DNA of 42,025 nucleotides from Bacteroidales bacterium (GTDB lineage Bacteria > Bacteroidota > Bacteroidia > Bacteroidales > Muribaculaceae). Under the pieces are notes generated by a model. It did no database searches, was not told the origin of the DNA, and saw only the letters and a program-made list of their open reading frames with translations. The first letter of the stretch is position 1; each line of letters begins with the position of its first letter. Below are positions 8,980 through 22,099 of this stretch, piece by piece. The position numbers were made by a program, and so were the translations under genes. The stretch spans positions 1 to 42,025 of the forward strand of contig SFER01000001.1 in the NCBI GenBank assembly GCA_004557195.1, read 5' to 3'.

Positions 8980-11403
8980 ATGAGTCAAATTATTGGCAAT
9001 GGAAAACCGGTTGAAGAGGAAAATTCGTCGGTTTCCTTGAGTGATTTCTTTTCATTATGCCGCAAGTATTGGATGTATTGCGCCGCATCGGTTTTCGTGT
9101 GCTGTGTAATTGCGGTTTTGCTCGCAAAGTCGAGCCCATTATCTTATCAAGCCGAGGCACAAATCCTTATTAAAGGTGAGAAAGAGACCGGCGACCTTCC
9201 AACAGCCGCATTATTCTCCGATTTGGGAATCGCACAAAGCAGTTCGGGAGTAAACAATGAGATGATTATCATCAACTCTGTTACAATGCTCAAGCAGGCG
9301 ATTATCCGCATCAATGCCAACGTGTTGTACTATCATAAAGGATTGCTCCGCGAGGTGAACATCTACAAAGCATCCCCGATTAAACTCACACCCGCAAGCG
9401 ATATGGGTGAGAATAGTTTTTGGGTTGATATTGATGTAGTCGATGCCAATGAATATGAGTATCGCTTCCACTATGTAGATAAGGTGTCGAAAGACGAAGT
9501 GGAAACCGAATGGACACGCGCAAAATTTGCCGAAGTCGTTAAGGAAAAATATGATTTCATAGTAACAAAGACCGAGAAATTCAATCTTGAGAACGATATG
9601 CGCGACTTGAAGGTGGTTTATCGCGATCCCTTCTCGATGGCTAAATCGTTGTATCCGTCGCTTGCTGTCAACACCATCTCAAAGGAAACCAGCGTGTTGA
9701 AGATGACTATCAACACCGACAACTTCGAGATGACAAAAGACCTTCTCAACTCGCTTATCAGCACATATAACGATGACGTTATCAACGACAAGAACCGCGT
9801 GGCTCGCAATACCGAGAACTTTATCCGCGACCGTATTGCCTCGCTCGCCGTTGACCTTGACGGAATTGATGGCAAAATCGAGCAACTCAAGCGCACCAAT
9901 AAAATTCCCGATATCGCCACAGCCGCACAACAATATGTGGAAACCGGCGAGAAATATCTCGATAACCTCACACAAGTGGAGACACAGATTTCGCTTGTAA
10001 ACTATATCTACGAATTTATCAGCAAGGAGGAGAACAAATATGGCTTGATTCCCGAAAATATCGGCATTGCCGACCTCGGTATCCAAAATCAGATAACAGC
10101 CTACAATAAGGCAATCCTCGACTTGTCGAAATTGATGCCCGGAGCAGGCGACGAGAACCCCTATCTCAGAGAGCAAAAGGCAGTGTGCGACAACTTGCGC
10201 GGCAATGTAATCGCCTCAATCCAGACACTCCAACGCTCGTTGGGCATTAAGCGCTCGCAAGCACTTGCGCAAGCCAACATGATGGATTCGCGCATCTCGA
10301 GAGTGCCCGGACAAGAGAAGGAAATCAGCGATGTGCTCCGTCAACAACAAATCAAGAACTCGCTTTACCTGTATTTGCTTAACAAACGTGAGGAGAACGC
10401 CTTGCAGATGGCTATCACCGAGCCCAACGCCAAGGTGATTGAAGAAGCATTCGGCGAAGAAATTCCGGTAGCTCCACGCACTCTCAACTTCCTCATGATT
10501 GGATTCCTCCTCGGTCTCTTGATTCCGGCAGGAAGCATCTACGGCTACCTTTGGATTCAGTCGCTCAACACCACAATCCGTGTGCGTAGAGACATTGAAG
10601 ATCGCTCGGATATTCCGGTGCTCGGCGAGGTTCCGACACGCAAAGAGGGCAAAACAGCAAGAGATGCCGCCGATATTATTGCCGTAATCGACAACGGTAA
10701 GGATATCCTCACCGAGGCATTCCGCATCTTGCGTAGCAACCTCCGCTTCTTTGTCGATGAAAACGATGGCGAAAATGTAGGTGCAAAAGTAATACAGTTC
10801 ACTTCAACCACACCGGGTGAAGGTAAGAGCTTCTTTGCAGTGAACCTTGCTCTCTCTCTCGCATTCTCGGGCAAGCGCACATTGCTCATCGACCTCGACT
10901 TGAGAAAAGGCACACTCTCGAAAAACCTCGGATTGCGCCGCTACTCGGGTGTGAGCACATATCTCACCGATATCAAGTTGCGCGAGAACGATGTAATCGC
11001 AAAGACCGATTACAGCGAAAACCTCGACATCATACCCACCGGAGCTCTTCCTCCCAACGCTACCAATCTTCTTGCATCGAAGCGCTTTGAGGAATTTATC
11101 AACACCCTCCGCACTCAGTACGACTACATCCTCCTCGATACAGTGCCGTTGTCGGTAATCGCCGACCCGATTATCGTAAATCGTGTTGCCGACCTCTTGG
11201 TTTATGTGATTCGCAGCAACCATATCGACCGTCGCTACCTCCCCGAGGTGTCGAAAATCAAAGAGCGTAACAAGATTAAGAATCTTGCCTTTGTGCTCAA
11301 CGATGTAAGTTACGAAGACAAAGGTTATGCTAAGTACAGCCACGGCTATGGCTACGGCTATGGCATTGGTTACGATTTCGGTGATGAGAAAGACAAAGAT
11401 TAG
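8980..11403 (+). CDS. Polysaccharide co-polymerase / tyrosine autokinase (Wzc/GumC-type chain-length determinant)
   Basis: N-terminal TM segment, a long coiled periplasmic region, then a second TM segment (LNFLMIGFLLGLLIPAGSIYGYLW). Kinase Walker A TSTTPGEGKSFFAVNLALSLA, Walker A' LIDLDLRKG, Walker B YILLDTVP. C-terminal Tyr cluster YAKYSHGYGYGYGIGYDF. Confidence 0.9.
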   Translation: MSQIIGNGKPVEEENSSVSLSDFFSLCRKYWMYCAASVFVCCVIAVLLAKSSPLSYQAEAQILIKGEKETGDLPTAALFSDLGIAQSSSGVNNEMIIINSVTMLKQAIIRINANVLYYHKGLLREVNIYKASPIKLTPASDMGENSFWVDIDVVDANEYEYRFHYVDKVSKDEVETEWTRAKFAEVVKEKYDFIVTKTEKFNLENDMRDLKVVYRDPFSMAKSLYPSLAVNTISKETSVLKMTINTDNFEMTKDLLNSLISTYNDDVINDKNRVARNTENFIRDRIASLAVDLDGIDGKIEQLKRTNKIPDIATAAQQYVETGEKYLDNLTQVETQISLVNYIYEFISKEENKYGLIPENIGIADLGIQNQITAYNKAILDLSKLMPGAGDENPYLREQKAVCDNLRGNVIASIQTLQRSLGIKRSQALAQANMMDSRISRVPGQEKEISDVLRQQQIKNSLYLYLLNKREENALQMAITEPNAKVIEEAFGEEIPVAPRTLNFLMIGFLLGLLIPAGSIYGYLWIQSLNTTIRVRRDIEDRSDIPVLGEVPTRKEGKTARDAADIIAVIDNGKDILTEAFRILRSNLRFFVDENDGENVGAKVIQFTSTTPGEGKSFFAVNLALSLAFSGKRTLLIDLDLRKGTLSKNLGLRRYSGVSTYLTDIKLRENDVIAKTDYSENLDIIPTGALPPNATNLLASKRFEEFINTLRTQYDYILLDTVPLSVIADPIIVNRVADLLVYVIRSNHIDRRYLPEVSKIKERNKIKNLAFVLNDVSYEDKGYAKYSHGYGYGYGIGYDFGDEKDKD

Positions 11404-16486: not shown

Positions 16487-17104
16487 TTAATTCCAGCCGT
16501 CGTAGTGGATGTTCTCCGGCTTCCACTTGTCTTTTATGTTCTTCTCCTCGGCAGGATATCCCACCGGGATGAGGCAGAGAGGAATGATGTTCTTGGGCGC
16601 GTTGAGGATGTTGGAAACCACATTGGCTCGCTCCATGTTGGGGTAGATTCCGGTCCACACAGCCCCAAGTCCGAGGCTGTTCACCGCAAGCAGGATATTC
16701 TCAGTTGCAGCCGAAGCATCTTGAATCCAGAAATCACGAGCCACACCCTCGAGAGCCTTGTCCATATCGCCGCACACCACGATGGCAAACGAGGCATTGG
16801 CAGTCATCTTGGCATTGGGAAGGCTGTCGGCGAGTTCCTTGAGCAATTCAGGCTTCTTAATCACCACAAAAGCCCAAGGCTGCTTGTTCACGGCAGTGGG
16901 AGCAGCCATCCCGGCGCGTAAAATCTTTTCGATTATCTCGTCGGGCACAGTGCGCTCGGAGTCGTAGGCTCTAACGCTGCAGCGAGTCATTATGTTGTCG
17001 TAGGCAGCGTTGCCTTGCGGCTCCTCGGTATTGGCAACCTTGAAAATCAGCACTCCGGCAAGAACAGCTAGAATCACATTTAGTACAATAGATGTTTTTT
17101 TCAT
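16487..17104 (-). CDS. Nitroreductase-family flavoprotein with an N-terminal hydrophobic segment
   Basis: RCSVRAYDS...ILRAGMAAPTAVNKQPW is a typical nitroreductase N-terminal motif. It is preceded by MKKTSIVLNVILAVLAGVLIF. Convergent with metH; the two stop codons are 4 nt apart. Confidence 0.8.
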   Translation of the reverse strand: MKKTSIVLNVILAVLAGVLIFKVANTEEPQGNAAYDNIMTRCSVRAYDSERTVPDEIIEKILRAGMAAPTAVNKQPWAFVVIKKPELLKELADSLPNAKMTANASFAIVVCGDMDKALEGVARDFWIQDASAATENILLAVNSLGLGAVWTGIYPNMERANVVSNILNAPKNIIPLCLIPVGYPAEEKNIKDKWKPENIHYDGWN

Positions 17105-17138
17105 ATAAATACAAATTAGAGGGGTTGAATTTCAATGG

Positions 17139-17146
17139 CAAAAATA
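17139..17146 (-). promoter_or_regulatory. -7 promoter box (TATTTTTG on the minus strand) for the nitroreductase gene
   Basis: The plus strand reads CAAAAATA, 35 nt upstream of the start at 17104. Confidence 0.4.
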
Positions 17147-17360
17147 CAAAAACAACTCGAACAATGCATATTGTGAGGGTGTATTTTTACCACTTTTTAA
17201 TACAATGCAGAGCACGGTGGCTATGTTTTATTTTACTAAAAAATAGGTCTATTTGTAGGATTTATTAACAAAAATGCTAATGTGCGGGGCGTATATAGTT
17301 AAATTTTGCTAATTACGGAAATTTTTCTTGGATTATTTTTTTTGTTTTACAAATAATGCA

Positions 17361-17368
17361 TACCTTTG
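17361..17368 (+). promoter_or_regulatory. Orphan -7 promoter box (TACCTTTG) with an upstream TTTG
   Basis: TACCTTTG at 17361-17368 with TTTG at 17341-17344. No annotated gene follows on this strand before the terminator at 17599. Confidence 0.4.
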
Positions 17369-17598
17369 CAGTGTTGTTAAGAACGTATATGTATATTTTG
17401 CTTGTGGATAGGATCAAACAGAAATTCATCCATAAACTTATTAGAAAAAATGAATGCTACGTTTATGATGGAGCTTCATTCCACCGGCGAAGTTTGTACG
17501 CAAGTAACAACTTTAGTTGGTTTGTTGATGTACATAAACATAAGATATAGATTTAGTATTAAATAGTTGTTTTATAGATAATTGTGTATTTAAAGATT

Positions 17599-17627
17599 GG
17601 GATAGTCGTGAGACTGTCCCCTTTTTT
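17599..17627 (+). terminator. Rho-independent terminator closing the orphan transcription unit
   Basis: GGGATAGTC (17599-17607), loop GTGA, GACTGTCCC (17612-17620): 9 bp including one G-U pair. Followed by CTTTTTTATT. Confidence 0.7.
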
Positions 17628-17730
17628 ATTGTCAAATAAAAAAGGCTGCGCCTTGGGGTGTAGCATTCTGTAGAGATTGTGTTCCTAAACTTTATTTGGC
17701 TTCGAGTTCAAAGCCGGAGTACATTCCTTT

Positions 17731-18309
17731 TTAGCCTTTGAGGAGGGTGGTTACGGTTGAGAGTGTTGAGGTTTTGCTGTAACTTGCTATCTTTGTTACG
17801 ATGTCGATGAGTTTTGTTACATCGAAGGTTACTTGCAAGGTTGTGCCTTTCTTTATGTAGGCTTTTGCTTCGGCTATTTTGTAGCGGCCGAGTGAATTGA
17901 AGTTGAATTGGAATCTGCCGTCGTCGGTTTTCTCAATTGTGCCCGATGCAGTTCCTTTTTTGAATTTCAACTCGAAATTGCCCTCGGCGTCGATGGTGAG
18001 CACCATGTTGTCAAGACCTACTCTCTTATAATATGGAGCCATTTTGTCTTCGATAACGCCTGCCATATATTCGCCACCTGCTTTGTTGAGGAGGTCTTCG
18101 CTTTCAAATGCAACGGCAGGGGCTTTGTATTTCCATGTGCCGGCAAGGTCTTTCACCTCAAGGTCGCTCTTGGAGACGAGGAGGTTGAGGATGTCGTTTG
18201 CTGTGTCGCTGTTGAGGAGTGAGCCAAGGCTACTCAAATCGAATGCGCTTGCCGAGAATGCCACTAACATTGCGGCAAGTGATAATAACATTTTTGATAC
18301 ACGATTCAT
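17731..18309 (-). CDS. Secreted DUF4923-like (lipocalin-like) protein
   Basis: I chose the ATG at 18309 (MNRVSKMLLSLAAMLVAFSASA signal peptide) because the track start at 18339 is a GTG lying inside the -7 box. The motifs LAGTWKYKAPAVAFESEDLLNKAGG...KLIDIVTKIASYSKTSTLSTV match my recollection of DUF4923 proteins. Confidence 0.6.
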   Translation of the reverse strand: MNRVSKMLLSLAAMLVAFSASAFDLSSLGSLLNSDTANDILNLLVSKSDLEVKDLAGTWKYKAPAVAFESEDLLNKAGGEYMAGVIEDKMAPYYKRVGLDNMVLTIDAEGNFELKFKKGTASGTIEKTDDGRFQFNFNSLGRYKIAEAKAYIKKGTTLQVTFDVTKLIDIVTKIASYSKTSTLSTVTTLLKG

Positions 18310-18511: not shown

Positions 18512-18519
18512 TAACTTTG
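18512..18519 (+). promoter_or_regulatory. -7 promoter box (TAACTTTG) for the capsid-like module
   Basis: TAACTTTG lies 31 nt upstream of the ATG at 18550. Confidence 0.5.
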
Positions 18520-18549
18520 CAGCGTAATCAATCAATTAATCATTAAACT

Positions 18550-19089
18550 ATGGAAACAGATTTTGAAAACAAAACCGATGGGCTGCTTGAGGCTCAAAAT
18601 GAAAACTGTATTGAACAACCCACTGTCGAGCCTATAGCTGAAGATGCGCCCGGCGACACCGTAAAGGCGGTGCTCGAGGCTCTTGCCGACGACCGATTGC
18701 GCTCTACTCTCGCCGAAATTTTCGCTCCAAAGCCAATGCCGGCTCCGGCAAAGCCGCAGGTGCCCGATGTGAGAGGCAAAGTGTCGGATTTCCTTTCGGA
18801 AATCGATGGCGAGAATCCCGATAATAGCGACATGGTGGAGAAGTCGCAAGCGGTTGTCGAGCAGATTCTTGAGAATCCCGAAGGCGACGAGTGGAAGATT
18901 GTTATCGCTAAAGGAATTGCCTACGACAACGCCGTGAACCGTGCATATATCAAAGGTCGCAACGAGCAAATCGAGGTGATTAGAAAGACCACCAATGTGC
19001 CTCTCGACGATTTTGAGCGTATCCAGGCGCTGAAACACCGCGATTCCGATTTCCTCGCCAATCCTCGCCGCAGTGTGTGGGATATCTAA
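18550..19089 (+). CDS. Acidic hypothetical protein; scaffold-like or cargo-like partner of the capsid-like protein
   Basis: 179 aa. The N-terminal two thirds are very rich in D, E and P and low in complexity (ETDFENKTDGLLEAQNENCIEQPTVEPIAEDAPGD...PKPMPAPAKPQVPD). A more basic, structured-looking C-terminal part follows (KGRNEQIEVIRKTT...ANPRRSVWDI). It lies 77 nt upstream of the capsid-like ORF. I recognise no family motif. Confidence 0.55.
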   Translation: METDFENKTDGLLEAQNENCIEQPTVEPIAEDAPGDTVKAVLEALADDRLRSTLAEIFAPKPMPAPAKPQVPDVRGKVSDFLSEIDGENPDNSDMVEKSQAVVEQILENPEGDEWKIVIAKGIAYDNAVNRAYIKGRNEQIEVIRKTTNVPLDDFERIQALKHRDSDFLANPRRSVWDI

Positions 19090-19165
19090 TCTTCAACATT
19101 TAATCACAAAACACACTATCTAATAACACACATTAATTCACTTAATTTTTTAATCTCTAAAAACT

Positions 19166-20584
19166 ATGACTAACAAAAACAATCGAAGCAATGCTTCAAC
19201 TTCCAAATCATTCATTGCTAAAATGGCAATTACTGTTGCCGAGTTTATCGAAAAACACCCGTTCCTCGCTCTTGCCGCGATTCTTGCCCTGGTGGGTTTG
19301 CTTGCATGGCTCGATGATTCCTGCAGCGCTGCATCGTTGGCTTCGGCAGTGATTGCCGGCACCGATGGCGGAAAACATGTGGTGGGCGGACCGATTACCA
19401 CCGACATTGTGCGCAAGGAGGGGGACTTCCTGCTCAACGAAATCGACAGCCGCATTGTGAAGATTCGCCCTATGGCGACTCCTATCGACCAAATCTCGCG
19501 CCTTGCCGGTGCAAAACACGCGGGCAGCATGATTGTCGATTACTACTCGGTGGATACCAAGCCTACCGTTACCAAGGTAACCGGCGCAGTCGCTGATATG
19601 GGAAGCAATGCGGTGTCGCTCAATGTCAAGAATCCCGAAATCTTTGAAGTTTCCGACACTATCTTGGTTAAAGGCGTGAGCGGCTATGACTCCGACGGTG
19701 TTACCACCCATGGCGACTTGGTGTTGTATGTCTTCGAAAAGAGTTCGACGGGAATCAAGGTTCTTGCGGTCAATGGCAAGAAGTCGGGCAATTTGGATAG
19801 TTGCATCCCCGCTATCCCCGAAGGTGCCGAAATTGTGAGAATGGGACGCGCCGCGACCGAGCTCGATGTGCAGTCGCCGCAATTTGAGTCTCTCCCGGTG
19901 AAATCGCAGAACTTCTGCCAGATTTTCAAGATGCAAATCGAGCAGAGTACGTTCCAGCGAATCGCGAATAAAGAGGTGGATTGGGGATTCTCCGACCAGG
20001 AGGAGGCAGCCATCTACGACATGCGTCTCGGCATGGAGAAGAATTTCCTTTTCGGAGCCAAGCGCAGAATCCTCGACCCCAACAAAAAAGAGGATGTTCT
20101 CTTCACCGGCGGCATCTGGTGGCAAGCGGGCAAAGAATATTCCTACGCCAAAGAAGATGGTCTCACTCAAGCATCGCTCATCAATATGATGAAAGAGGCT
20201 TTCACCGGAAATGCCGGCAACAAGCGCAAGGTGCTCATCGGCGGTAGCGAGCTCATCGAGTTGCTTAGCAATATCGAGACCACCAAAGTGCTCTCGGCTG
20301 GCGAAAACATCGTGAAATGGGGCATCGATTTCACCGAAATACGCTCTAAATTCGGCAAATTCTATGTCCTTCTAAGCGAGATTTTCGATGAGTGTGGCAT
20401 GCCCGGATGTGGCATCGTAATCGACCCCGAGTATATCCAGAAGTATAGCCATATCCCGTTCGGAACTCAGTCGCTCAACCTCAAGGATGCCGGAATCCGC
20501 AACACCGACGCTCTTGTGCTCACCGAGGCAAGCTGCGTCACCCTCCGTTACCCCAAGGCTCACATGCGCATCACCGCTTATTAG
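19166..20584 (+). CDS. Major-capsid-like protein of HK97-fold type with an N-terminal hydrophobic extension
   Basis: The N-arm-like block LLNEIDSRIVKIRPMATPIDQISRLAGAKHAGSMIVDYYSVDTKP resembles the xxLxxxIxxIxPxxTPxxxxxG...W/YxxD pattern of SU10/P22-type coat proteins. The spine-helix-like block is QNFCQIFKMQIEQSTFQR...EEAAIYDMRLGMEKNFLFGAKR. 472 aa. The assignment is by motif recollection only. Confidence 0.65.
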   Translation: MTNKNNRSNASTSKSFIAKMAITVAEFIEKHPFLALAAILALVGLLAWLDDSCSAASLASAVIAGTDGGKHVVGGPITTDIVRKEGDFLLNEIDSRIVKIRPMATPIDQISRLAGAKHAGSMIVDYYSVDTKPTVTKVTGAVADMGSNAVSLNVKNPEIFEVSDTILVKGVSGYDSDGVTTHGDLVLYVFEKSSTGIKVLAVNGKKSGNLDSCIPAIPEGAEIVRMGRAATELDVQSPQFESLPVKSQNFCQIFKMQIEQSTFQRIANKEVDWGFSDQEEAAIYDMRLGMEKNFLFGAKRRILDPNKKEDVLFTGGIWWQAGKEYSYAKEDGLTQASLINMMKEAFTGNAGNKRKVLIGGSELIELLSNIETTKVLSAGENIVKWGIDFTEIRSKFGKFYVLLSEIFDECGMPGCGIVIDPEYIQKYSHIPFGTQSLNLKDAGIRNTDALVLTEASCVTLRYPKAHMRITAY

Positions 20585-20615
20585 GCCATTATTCTCTTTT
20601 CTCACCATTTGTGAT

Positions 20616-20654
20616 GGCAGAATCCTCGCTTTGGATTTTGCCATCGCCTTTTAT
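20616..20654 (+). terminator. Hairpin terminator after the capsid-like gene
   Basis: GGCAGAATCC (20616-20625) / GGATTTTGCC (20633-20642): 10 bp with one G-U pair. Followed by ATCGCCTTTTATT. Confidence 0.5.
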
Positions 20655-20659
20655 TGCGC

Positions 20660-20667
20660 TATCTTTG
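20660..20667 (+). promoter_or_regulatory. -7 promoter box (TATCTTTG) for the third gene of the module
   Basis: TATCTTTG lies 38 nt upstream of the ATG at 20705. Confidence 0.45.
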
Positions 20668-20704
20668 CAGTATAATTTGTTGAACTCATAAAAATTAATG
20701 CGAT

Positions 20705-21268
20705 ATGACTATATGGTACTCCGGACCCTTTGTTGAAAGGCTCACCAAATCTATTGTGGAACTGTGCGCAAGCCGCGGAATTATCAAGGACCGCCTTTTT
20801 GATGTCGAAGACCTTGAGGAACGATGGAAAAAGAGTGCGCCGCAATACATGGCAGACTCGGTGCCCGAAATCGCCCGCTATCCCATGGTGGCGATAGCAT
20901 GGGCTGCCTATTACGGCATCGGTGCCGCGGTGCTCTGGGATGCTGCATGGGAGAAGGTGAAGGATATCGACGACCTCTATGTGTATATCCGCGATGTGCG
21001 CGGCTATGATTGTATGGACGAATATGTGATGGATTCTCTCCTCGATGTGAAAGAGGGGCAAAAGCGTCGCGCGCTCATCGACGGCACTCTGCAGGAGTGT
21101 GCCCAGTTGGCACTGTCGCTCATTCGCAAAGAGGGAATCGAGCCGGCAAGCGTCGAGGCGTTCCAAATGTATGCCAAGACCACCGAGATTTTCTTCCGAC
21201 TCGGTGCCACTATCGCCCTCACTACTCTCGGCTACAAACTCGAGAAGGTGAATTTAAATCTCAACTAA
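20705..21268 (+). CDS. Hypothetical, probably all-helical protein (third gene of the capsid-like module)
   Basis: 187 aa, no signal peptide. Trp/Tyr-rich segment YPMVAIAWAAYYGIGAAVLWDAAWEKV. It has its own promoter box. Its 3' end overlaps the convergent gene 21254..22099 by 15 nt. I recognise no family. Confidence 0.55.
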   Translation: MTIWYSGPFVERLTKSIVELCASRGIIKDRLFDVEDLEERWKKSAPQYMADSVPEIARYPMVAIAWAAYYGIGAAVLWDAAWEKVKDIDDLYVYIRDVRGYDCMDEYVMDSLLDVKEGQKRRALIDGTLQECAQLALSLIRKEGIEPASVEAFQMYAKTTEIFFRLGATIALTTLGYKLEKVNLNLN

Positions 21269-22099
21269 TCCGGATTCCATCTCGATGTCGAGAGGAAGAT
21301 GAAGCATATAGGTTAGAATCGGATAGCACTTTCCTCGGCAGGCGCCATAGAAGTGCATAGCCTCGCGTCCTGCCACCACATTCGACGCGCCGAGCCAAAA
21401 TTCGGCGAGCGCAAGAGGTGTGTAGCCATTCTCAAAAGCATATTGGAGCAATTTGGGCGCAGCGCAGTCGCCTGCCGCAGCGGGCGGGATGAGCGGCACG
21501 CGTGGATATTGCCGCGCGCTATATTCGCCTCTGCTTCTTCGTGCTGCTATTTCTCGTGTGCGTTCCTCAGCCCTGAGCCGCTCCAATTCATTGTGGCATC
21601 GAGCAAACAGTTCGCCAAGCGACATCCGGTTGCCGGCTATATCGGTAATTACATATTGTTCAAATAGCCATTGCTGCAGTTGTGCCGACATTCCCGCACG
21701 CTTGGCGGCAAGTGCCTCCACATCCCCCTCTCCGGTTTCGATTGCTCGGTTGATAGCGGTTATTTCAGCCTCTTTTCGGCGAAAATAGCCATCCTCCGGC
21801 GTGGCGTCGAAGATTGGAGGCACGAAATAGGGGTGATTGTTGCTTTTGTTCAAGTTGCCCGAATACGCCGCAAGAAATCCCGGTGTATTATCTGCGCTTC
21901 GCACGATGAGGGTGCCAAACATTTTGCCTCTCCGCGCAATTTCCTTGCTCCACGATTCGTTTTGAGCCACAGTCGCGGCAATAATCGTCGCAGCTCTGCG
22001 ACACAGCGGCTCGCTGCATGGCAGAAACGGGTTGTTGAGTGTAGCGGGCAATTCGCTTGGCAACACATCGAGGAGGTGGAAACGGCTATCTTGTGGCAT
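21254..22099 (-). CDS. Stand-alone homologue of the N-terminal (deaminase-fold-like, Cys-motif) module of long Bacteroidota RluA-family proteins; the RluA domain is absent
   Basis: I chose the ATG at 22099 because the track start at 22120 is a TTG. Blocks GKMFGTLIV...GFLAAYSGNL...HPYFVPPIFD, a coiled middle part, then PPAAAGDCAAPKLLQYAF...ALAEFWLG...FYGACRGKCYPILTYML. The ORF stops (LVEI*) where, as I recall, homologues continue into the pseudouridine synthase domain. There is no HRLD motif anywhere downstream. Confidence 0.55.
   Translation of the reverse strand: MPQDSRFHLLDVLPSELPATLNNPFLPCSEPLCRRAATIIAATVAQNESWSKEIARRGKMFGTLIVRSADNTPGFLAAYSGNLNKSNNHPYFVPPIFDATPEDGYFRRKEAEITAINRAIETGEGDVEALAAKRAGMSAQLQQWLFEQYVITDIAGNRMSLGELFARCHNELERLRAEERTREIAARRSRGEYSARQYPRVPLIPPAAAGDCAAPKLLQYAFENGYTPLALAEFWLGASNVVAGREAMHFYGACRGKCYPILTYMLHLPLDIEMESGLVEI

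Follow-up and report, generated by a model that had tools for sequence, protein, structure and literature searches.

Two phage-derived capsid genes of Muribaculaceae mark a cell-specific clade and are probably the core of a domesticated head-and-packaging gene set

Two kinds of domesticated phage capsid are known, namely gene transfer agents (GTAs) and encapsulins. To our knowledge, no such system has been known for Bacteroidota, a dominant phylum of the gut, and none was found in the literature that we searched. Here, we describe a pair of adjacent genes, G1 and G2, in a 42,025-bp stretch of DNA from a member of the Muribaculaceae (Bacteroidales bacterium, assembly GCA_004557195.1, contig SFER01000001.1; the whole stretch is referred to below as the window). 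G2 encodes a major capsid (coat) protein, and G1, directly upstream, encodes an acidic protein from a family that holds the scaffold position in related phages. The pair marks a large cell-specific clade, spanning at least 216 species genomes, with domesticated phage capsid genes. On balance, we favor the view that G1 and G2 are the invariant shell-forming core of a domesticated and fragmenting head-and-packaging gene set that derives from a BF1-TP2/SU10-like lineage of podophages.

Membership of G2 in the SU10_MCP family is established at the level of sequence. The Pfam profile PF17236 is matched with an E-value of 4.1e-46 and 158 bits (cut-off 24.1) over profile positions 9–289 of 292, which is the only Pfam match of the protein, and phrog_26635 is matched with an E-value of 2e-101. 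A profile built from G2 and 37 homologues matched a single protein of solved structure (9in6, E-value 2e-8), which is the VP1 major capsid protein, from a Vibrio phage. Thus, the preliminary description of this DNA, made from the letters alone, had correctly placed the 472-aa protein among coat proteins of the HK97 lineage. The blocks that it had read as an N-arm and a spine helix are the most conserved parts of G2; confidence of the AlphaFold2 (AF2) model is low there, and these structural details are plausible.

Relatives of G2 are numerous (at least 2969 in the protein collection) and occur in at least 216 species-representative genomes, mostly of Muribaculaceae, Barnesiella and allied Bacteroidales, from which 81 species-genome loci were sampled. 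Among isolated phages only three carry a relative, at 43% identity, and 78 of the 80 contigs fetched from IMG/VR show 40–45% identity to G2, on viral contigs of 4–83 kb. In a neighbor-joining (NJ) tree of 162 coat proteins the 81 genome loci and two nominally viral contigs formed a single clade (bootstrap 100/100), with 79 phage contigs outside of it. The coat protein of the window is 51–93% identical to cellular copies and 40–45% identical to viral ones; overall, cellular and phage coats share 40–47% identity. The large terminase (TerL) follows the same division, being found in 77 of 81 phage loci versus 2 of 81 genome loci.

The two contigs that IMG/VR catalogues as viral and that fall inside the cellular clade (L082 and L083) are 58–59% identical to G2. 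Both encode full-length scaffold and coat proteins and have no terminase or portal match. They may be misclassified chromosomal fragments or an intermediate form.

The G1–G2 pair is fixed in the species and is under purifying selection. The coat gene is a single intact open reading frame (ORF) in 82 of the 83 cellular-clade loci, the exception being cut by a contig end, and dN/dS over 18 species pairs was 0.02–0.18 for the coat and 0.04–0.30 for G1. Between the window and a 94%-identical relative (L002) dN/dS was 0.25 for G1 and 0.12 for G2; dS was 0.21–0.29 for these two genes and 0.15–0.26 for the flanks, and local gene order is kept, so that over the species pair examined G1 and G2 have been inherited vertically together with their surroundings. 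In the assembly collection, 73 indexed blocks contain a protein identical to G2, and all three contigs displayed share the gene context. Base composition, GC content at third codon positions (GC3) and codon usage of G1, G2 and the downstream gene G3 are inside the range of the host and the flanking genes, in line with the host-like codon choice noted in the preliminary description. That description had regarded two outcomes as contrary to its proposal, a lack of any coat-fold match and a sporadic, neutrally evolving copy whose closest homologues sit in complete prophages. We found PF17236 and 9in6 matches, and a copy that is fixed, constrained, kept in its context and outside the phage clade.

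These data bear directly on the possibility that the two genes are leftovers of a decayed prophage and have no current function. The phage origin of both is beyond question, and some loci of the clade (for example L019, L023, L044 and L046) keep more phage-like genes than the others do. Yet the intact reading frames, the low dN/dS of both genes, the conserved context of the exact protein and the cell-specific clade together exclude a plain relic, an explanation that we regard as very improbable.

G1 has no Pfam, NCBIfam or PHROG family. A word-based search for its relatives reached only proteins of at least 91% identity, and the family was recovered through gene position and local profiles. 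Against the resulting family profile G1 gave an E-value of 1e-19. The gene just before the coat gene encodes a member of the family in 67 of the 81 genome loci and in 80 of the 81 viral loci, gp57 of Bacteroides phage BF1-TP2 included. As the preliminary description had stated, the 179-aa protein is very acidic (pI 4.44, with 37 aspartate and glutamate residues) and partly of low complexity, namely in its N-terminal part. Between phages and cells only the C-terminal ~60 residues of the family are conserved (..GY.RGRNE.IE..R(R/K)SVWD), and median length is 264 aa in phages versus 130 aa in cells; in the clade of the window, a short, variable, acidic stretch replaces the N-terminal two-thirds of the scaffold. 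From its position and from the way phage scaffolds work, the C-terminal core of G1 would be the part that binds the coat. Of the two roles offered earlier for this protein, scaffold or cargo, the first is supported by profile and gene position; as to the second, no enzymatic or recognizable cargo domain was found in G1.

Across the cellular clade the head module is found in graded states. Basal groups have a full-length scaffold and several phage-like genes. The fullest cellular version is a single-strand operon of seven genes on a contig of an uncultured Barnesiella (L075, 1646–8733), which reads TerL (690 aa), G1, coat, c3, portal, c4 and c5, where c3–c5 are our labels for accessory genes. 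A six-gene module without TerL is present in about 20 loci, flanked by MetK and other housekeeping genes. In the large clade to which the window belongs the pair stands bare, with an adjacent or nearby portal gene in five loci and a distant c4–c5 pair in two; about 40 sampled loci have G1 and G2 only, amid housekeeping genes. Consistently, when all ORFs of the minimal-clade loci were compared with the phage loci by BLAST, the coat alone was matched, sometimes together with G1. The accessory genes map to gp61 (portal), gp54, gp58 and the terminase-like gp60 of BF1-TP2, and the cellular portal is a truncated P22-type protein. Where these genes are present and a close species pair was available, dN/dS was 0.06–0.21 for the portal, 0.12–0.26 for c3, 0.09–0.13 for c4 and 0.19–0.43 for c5. 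A further gene order, portal, G1 and coat, was seen in rumen metagenome contigs (L203–L237), where c3, c4 and c5 were not detected.

Module genes were also found at chromosomal sites away from the pair. The cellular portal profile retrieved 517 relatives from metagenome contigs. Among them are orphan portals from about 18 human-gut assemblies (contigs of up to 249 kb), intact and 456–483 aa long, whose genes are followed directly by fumarate-reductase-like genes; no coat, G1, c3, c4 or c5 gene occurs within 10 kb of them. Their dN/dS is 0.13–0.29, and they are most closely related to portals that are linked with coat genes from the clade of the window. In a widespread minimal-pair species (L249/L250), whose coat is 73–75% identical to those of 'Candidatus Limisoma' loci, genes for a PTR2 transporter and SufE separate the pair from an intact large terminase encoded 7.6 kb downstream (in L249 the two parts are at 9602–11377 and 19209–21083, with unannotated genes for 840-aa and 468-aa proteins in between). 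This terminase scores 3e-233 on our c24 profile and 3e-20 on phrog_2. Cellular TerL proteins are 47–49% identical to each other and 37–43% identical to phage TerL proteins, which parallels the coat. Since portals and TerL can sit at separate chromosomal sites, a minimal-pair locus is no proof of a minimal system.

The history that we favor would run as follows. A podophage lineage with BF1-TP2 among its relatives would have supplied the head-and-packaging genes, which the host lineage kept for its own use. Like phage scaffolds, G1 would dock on G2, through its C-terminal ~60 residues, and nucleate closed HK97-type shells. The cellular element from which these loci descend may have packaged DNA into tail-less heads; later lineages would have lost or dispersed the accessory genes and always kept coat and scaffold. 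In the genome studied here, shells could be completed by a portal and a terminase encoded outside of the window, in a GTA-like, multi-locus fashion, or they could be portal-less protein shells. Because relatives keep a constrained portal, c3, c4 and c5 and an intact TerL, either linked to the pair or dispersed in the chromosome, a GTA-like or satellite-like DNA-packaging head is at least as well indicated as a protein compartment, and within this scheme we consider the dispersed DNA-packaging branch somewhat more likely than a stand-alone shell. Circumstantial support for packaging comes from a preprint in which Muribaculaceae DNA made up ~19% of the bacterial DNA in murine virus-like-particle fractions, and large Duncaniella regions were carried in such fractions by an uncharacterized mechanism (bioRxiv 10.64898/2026.07.08.737213).

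GTAs such as RcGTA of Rhodobacter, BaGTA of Bartonella and VSH-1 of Brachyspira resemble the system in several respects: structural genes of phage origin are passed on vertically and kept by purifying selection, integration and replication genes are lacking, components can be spread over several chromosomal loci, and a terminase is kept in some genomes. They differ in that the cellular loci described here have no tail genes, the window has neither portal nor terminase, the phage lineage is another one, the module is cut to two genes in many species, and the system is known here from its genes alone. We know of no GTA report for Bacteroidota, and none was found in the literature searched.

Several observations weigh against the interpretation that we prefer. 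That G1 and G2 assemble into shells is something we infer from homology. The AF2 model of G2, on which fold-level features depend, is weak (pLDDT 59.8, pTM 0.43), because its input was limited to close homologues (38 sequences at 59–70% identity). Foldseek with this model listed 9in6 of VP1 first (E-value 4e-10), followed by P1, S6 and crAss001, at TM-scores of about 0.2 that carry no meaning given the poor model; a search against BFVD with the same model returned podovirus and crAss-like coat proteins. Tail genes were not seen in any cellular locus. The c3, c4 and c5 profiles had no matches to solved structures, and in PHROGs c3 and c4 fall only in families of unknown function. No portal, TerL, c3, c4 or c5 gene lies within the ~19 kb upstream or the 21 kb downstream of the pair. 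Bootstrap support is 79/100 for the large clade of the window and 11/100 for its finer subclade, and the trees, being NJ and midpoint-rooted, only suggest the order of gene loss. Flanking genes also differ between subclades, so the pair may have been transferred occasionally.

A stand-alone nanocompartment of the encapsulin kind would account for part of the same evidence. The coat would form a closed, portal-less shell around a shortened scaffold and hold protein instead of DNA, the content being either the acidic N-terminal region of G1 or an unlinked protein with a G1-like C-terminal tag. The many loci with nothing but G1 and G2 fit this picture, as do the branches of the minimal clade that do without accessory genes and always keep the pair, and the lack of a portal or TerL in the window, even as a degraded remnant (profile searches and tblastn). 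The scaffold retains only its capsid-proximal C-terminal motif, the remainder being short, variable and acidic, which resembles the logic of a targeting peptide. However, G1 is without an enzymatic or cargo domain, no second protein with the G1 motif was found near any locus (one match per locus), and close relatives of the minimal clade still have constrained portals and intact TerL genes, whether or not these are linked to the pair. The coat family also lies outside all four encapsulin shell families. Taking these points together, we consider such a compartment rather unlikely. Encapsulins of families 1–4 do share with the pair a shell gene of HK97 lineage outside phages, a small partner with a conserved terminal motif and conservation across many species. 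Yet their shells belong to Linocin_M18 (PF04454), family 2, PF05065 or DUF1884 (PF08967), and not to PF17236, and here the partner is a scaffold homologue without an enzyme domain, in a group whose relatives still carry portal and terminase. An encapsulin census (Andreas and Giessen 2021, PMC8346489) holds no SU10, PF17236 or DUF5309 systems.

A related proposal is that living genomes of the clade preserve a stepwise path by which a DNA-packaging phage head became a portal-less shell of two proteins, from the seven-gene operon through the six-gene module without TerL and the pair with a stray portal to the bare pair. The window would then represent the end state, a nascent fifth encapsulin-like type of independent origin, built from a P22/SU10-like coat with a scaffold remnant as its internal anchor. 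We regard this, too, as unlikely. Of the earlier proposal of a 'domesticated capsid or encapsulin-like nanocompartment', domestication is borne out by the cell-specific clade and by selection, and the encapsulin-like nature is not established, given the packaging genes in relatives. Its remark that no described family has this architecture agrees with our reading: in the literature searched on capsids, encapsulins, GTAs and satellites of Muribaculaceae and Bacteroidales, we found no description of a G1–G2 system.

Around the pair, the window is an ordinary Bacteroidales chromosome with genes for MetH, nitroreductase, a DUF4923 lipocalin, SecA, YidC, CTP synthase, capsule and glycan functions, and an endonuclease I protein. 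Pfam scans of the 25 other ORFs revealed no phage gene besides G1 and G2 across the 42 kb, and no integrase, replication or regulatory module. Profiles of the portal, the terminase and five other head-module genes had no matches in the window even at relaxed thresholds, and when every ORF of the 79 phage loci was compared with it by tblastn, G2 was the sole match. Neither att-like repeats nor tRNA genes nor Rfam families were found in the window. The preliminary description's list of missing parts (terminase, portal, tail gene, integrase and att repeat) was therefore accurate.

Another alternative is a phage-interference or satellite-like function, in which the products of the host genes would join the head proteins of infecting BF1-TP2-like phages in mixed assemblies or redirect them, either poisoning phage assembly as a defense or borrowing phage terminase and tails to move host DNA. 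Bacteroidales phages with a homologous coat, scaffold, portal, c3 and c4 do exist, and the seven-gene operon of L075 and the six-gene module have no tail genes, mirroring capsid-forming satellites (cf-PICI), which steal only tails. In contrast, the window has none of the integrase, replication or regulatory modules, att sites or tRNA genes, and a PADLOC scan of G1, G2, G3 and hyp281, the gene following G3, gave no match. A fixed chromosomal position and low dN/dS are unlike arms-race genes, and the identity between cellular and phage coats is low for co-assembly. We therefore hold this explanation to be improbable. Phage satellites (PICI, cf-PICI and P4-like) are similar in one respect: in L075, TerL, scaffold, coat, portal and small proteins make up a head-packaging set, and no tail genes are seen beside it. 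They are unlike in that integrase, primase or replicase and regulatory genes are missing here, att flanks are absent, and the loci are syntenic and vertically inherited, not mobile.

The signals around the pair fit a single bicistronic G1–G2 transcript: G1 has its own Bacteroidota-type –7 promoter box, the spacer to G2 is short and free of such a box, and a terminator-like hairpin closes the unit (Table 1). The hairpin has a predicted dG of –24.8 kcal/mol (z = –5.9), and none of 200 shuffled sequences folds as well. A first hairpin screen (minimum free energy ≤ –15 over 110 nt) was non-discriminating, and a z-score based on shuffling was used instead. A TAnnTTTG box precedes G1 in 39 of 40 minimal-clade loci, versus 0.09 expected by chance, and no –7 box occurs within the G1–G2 spacer (76 nt in the window) in any of these 40. 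The phage relatives carry the same signals, with a –7 box preceding the scaffold gene in 72 of 77 loci and a strong hairpin 3′ of the coat gene in 73 of 77 (35 of 45 in the minimal clade). Box and hairpin were thus inherited from the phage ancestor and provide no evidence of domestication. The preliminary description had reported both boxes (TAACTTTG and TATCTTTG) and the hairpin, all of which are present, and had called them host-style, a significance that the phage relatives take away.

Residues 32–49 of G2 (19259–19312) form a transmembrane-like hydrophobic helix, PFLALAAILALVGLLAWL, which is followed by a conserved (A/M)AV..AG..GGKH motif at residues ~59–76. Helix and motif recur in the coat family, in 75 of 79 members from phages and 62 of 83 from cells. 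Such an N-terminal helix is unusual for a coat of the HK97 lineage and could point to a propeptide that is cleaved off or to assembly at a membrane. We also observed ORFs antisense to the coat gene, one of 320 aa in the window (19208–20170, – strand) and others in L002, L008, L013 and L020. In some relatives ORFs of 478–521 aa cover the whole gene, and antisense counterparts exist in phage loci. They are probably an artefact of codon composition that can mislead simple gene callers.

The known phages most similar to the locus are the podophages BF1-TP2, BS-TP4 and BKO1-TP3 (PQ571263, PQ571277 and PQ571269). Like the window, they have a coat of this family (43% identity) with the hydrophobic N-terminal helix, a scaffold-position homologue directly upstream, a –7 box before the scaffold gene and a hairpin after the coat gene. 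The window departs from them in lacking genes for terminase, portal, tail, lysis and regulation; its G1 is only about half as long as the phage counterpart, and its pair stands in a fixed housekeeping context, in a separate clade found only in cells.

Within the clade one phage head module can be seen in all stages of its reduction, and the genes that remain are under selection, which could bear on how a particle of the GTA or encapsulin kind might turn into the other. If particles that carry DNA are made, they could explain the abundance of Muribaculaceae DNA in virus-like-particle fractions of the gut. If the particles are without DNA, they would constitute a new family of self-assembling shells with a very short scaffold tag, of interest to nanocompartment engineers.

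Table 1. Coordinates of the genes and signals discussed; positions refer to the window unless a contig handle is given
Feature	Position	Strand	Basis or remark
Bacteroidota-type –7 promoter box TAACTTTG	18512–18519	+	Pattern search; 31 nt upstream of the G1 start codon
G1, 179-aa acidic, shortened member of the family in scaffold position of related phages	18550–19089	+	Family profile
Conserved C-terminal core of G1 (..YIKGRNEQIEV..RRSVWDI), also in phage proteins	18910–19086	+	Alignment of 26 cellular and phage members, profile coordinates
G2, 472-aa SU10-type (HK97-lineage) major capsid protein of the cell-specific clade	19166–20584	+	Pfam, 9in6 profile and Foldseek matches, tree, dN/dS
Intrinsic-terminator-like hairpin (15-bp stem, then U-run) closing the G1–G2 unit	20611–20647	+	RNA fold
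Box TATCTTTG preceding G3	20660–20667		Pattern search
G3, conserved Muribaculaceae protein	20705–21268	+	ORF
Orphan portals (L168–L190, L219; e.g. L179, L186)	Portal at about 10001–11293 of the contig		Cellular portal profile

The ORFs of G1, G2 and G3 have exactly the positions and the strand given in the preliminary description, which had grouped them into a three-gene module. The sequence comparisons separate G3 from it: among the 81 related genome loci G3 stands next to the coat gene only in L002, and its other homologues (45–73% identity) are surrounded by housekeeping genes, without a capsid gene in the neighborhood. In one metagenome-assembled genome (GCA_028689665.1) the G3 homologue is on contig 13 (L163) and the G1–G2 pair on contig 31 (L077). 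G3 is, on this sequence evidence, a host gene unrelated to the module, which consists of two genes. By size and position G3 could have been a divergent c3; this candidate was rejected, as the c3 profile misses G3 and the G3 homologues live elsewhere. The model of G3 is confident (pLDDT 90) and all-helical and has no matches in the PDB. G3 convergently overlaps the 3′-end of hyp281 (21254–22099, – strand). Elsewhere, relatives of G3 adjoin hyp281-like genes or genes for ~540-aa proteins of the pseudouridine-synthase family with a hyp281-like N-terminal part.

Upstream of the pair, an AT-rich gap of 625 bp (17105–17730, GC about 0.37) separates the nitroreductase and DUF4923 genes; no gene-sized ORF, tRNA or Rfam match was found in it. 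A rearrangement is seen just upstream of the DUF4923 gene when the window (16487–18309) is compared with L002 (4614–9147): the neighbors of this gene are MetH and nitroreductase in the window and YidC and CTP synthase in L002.

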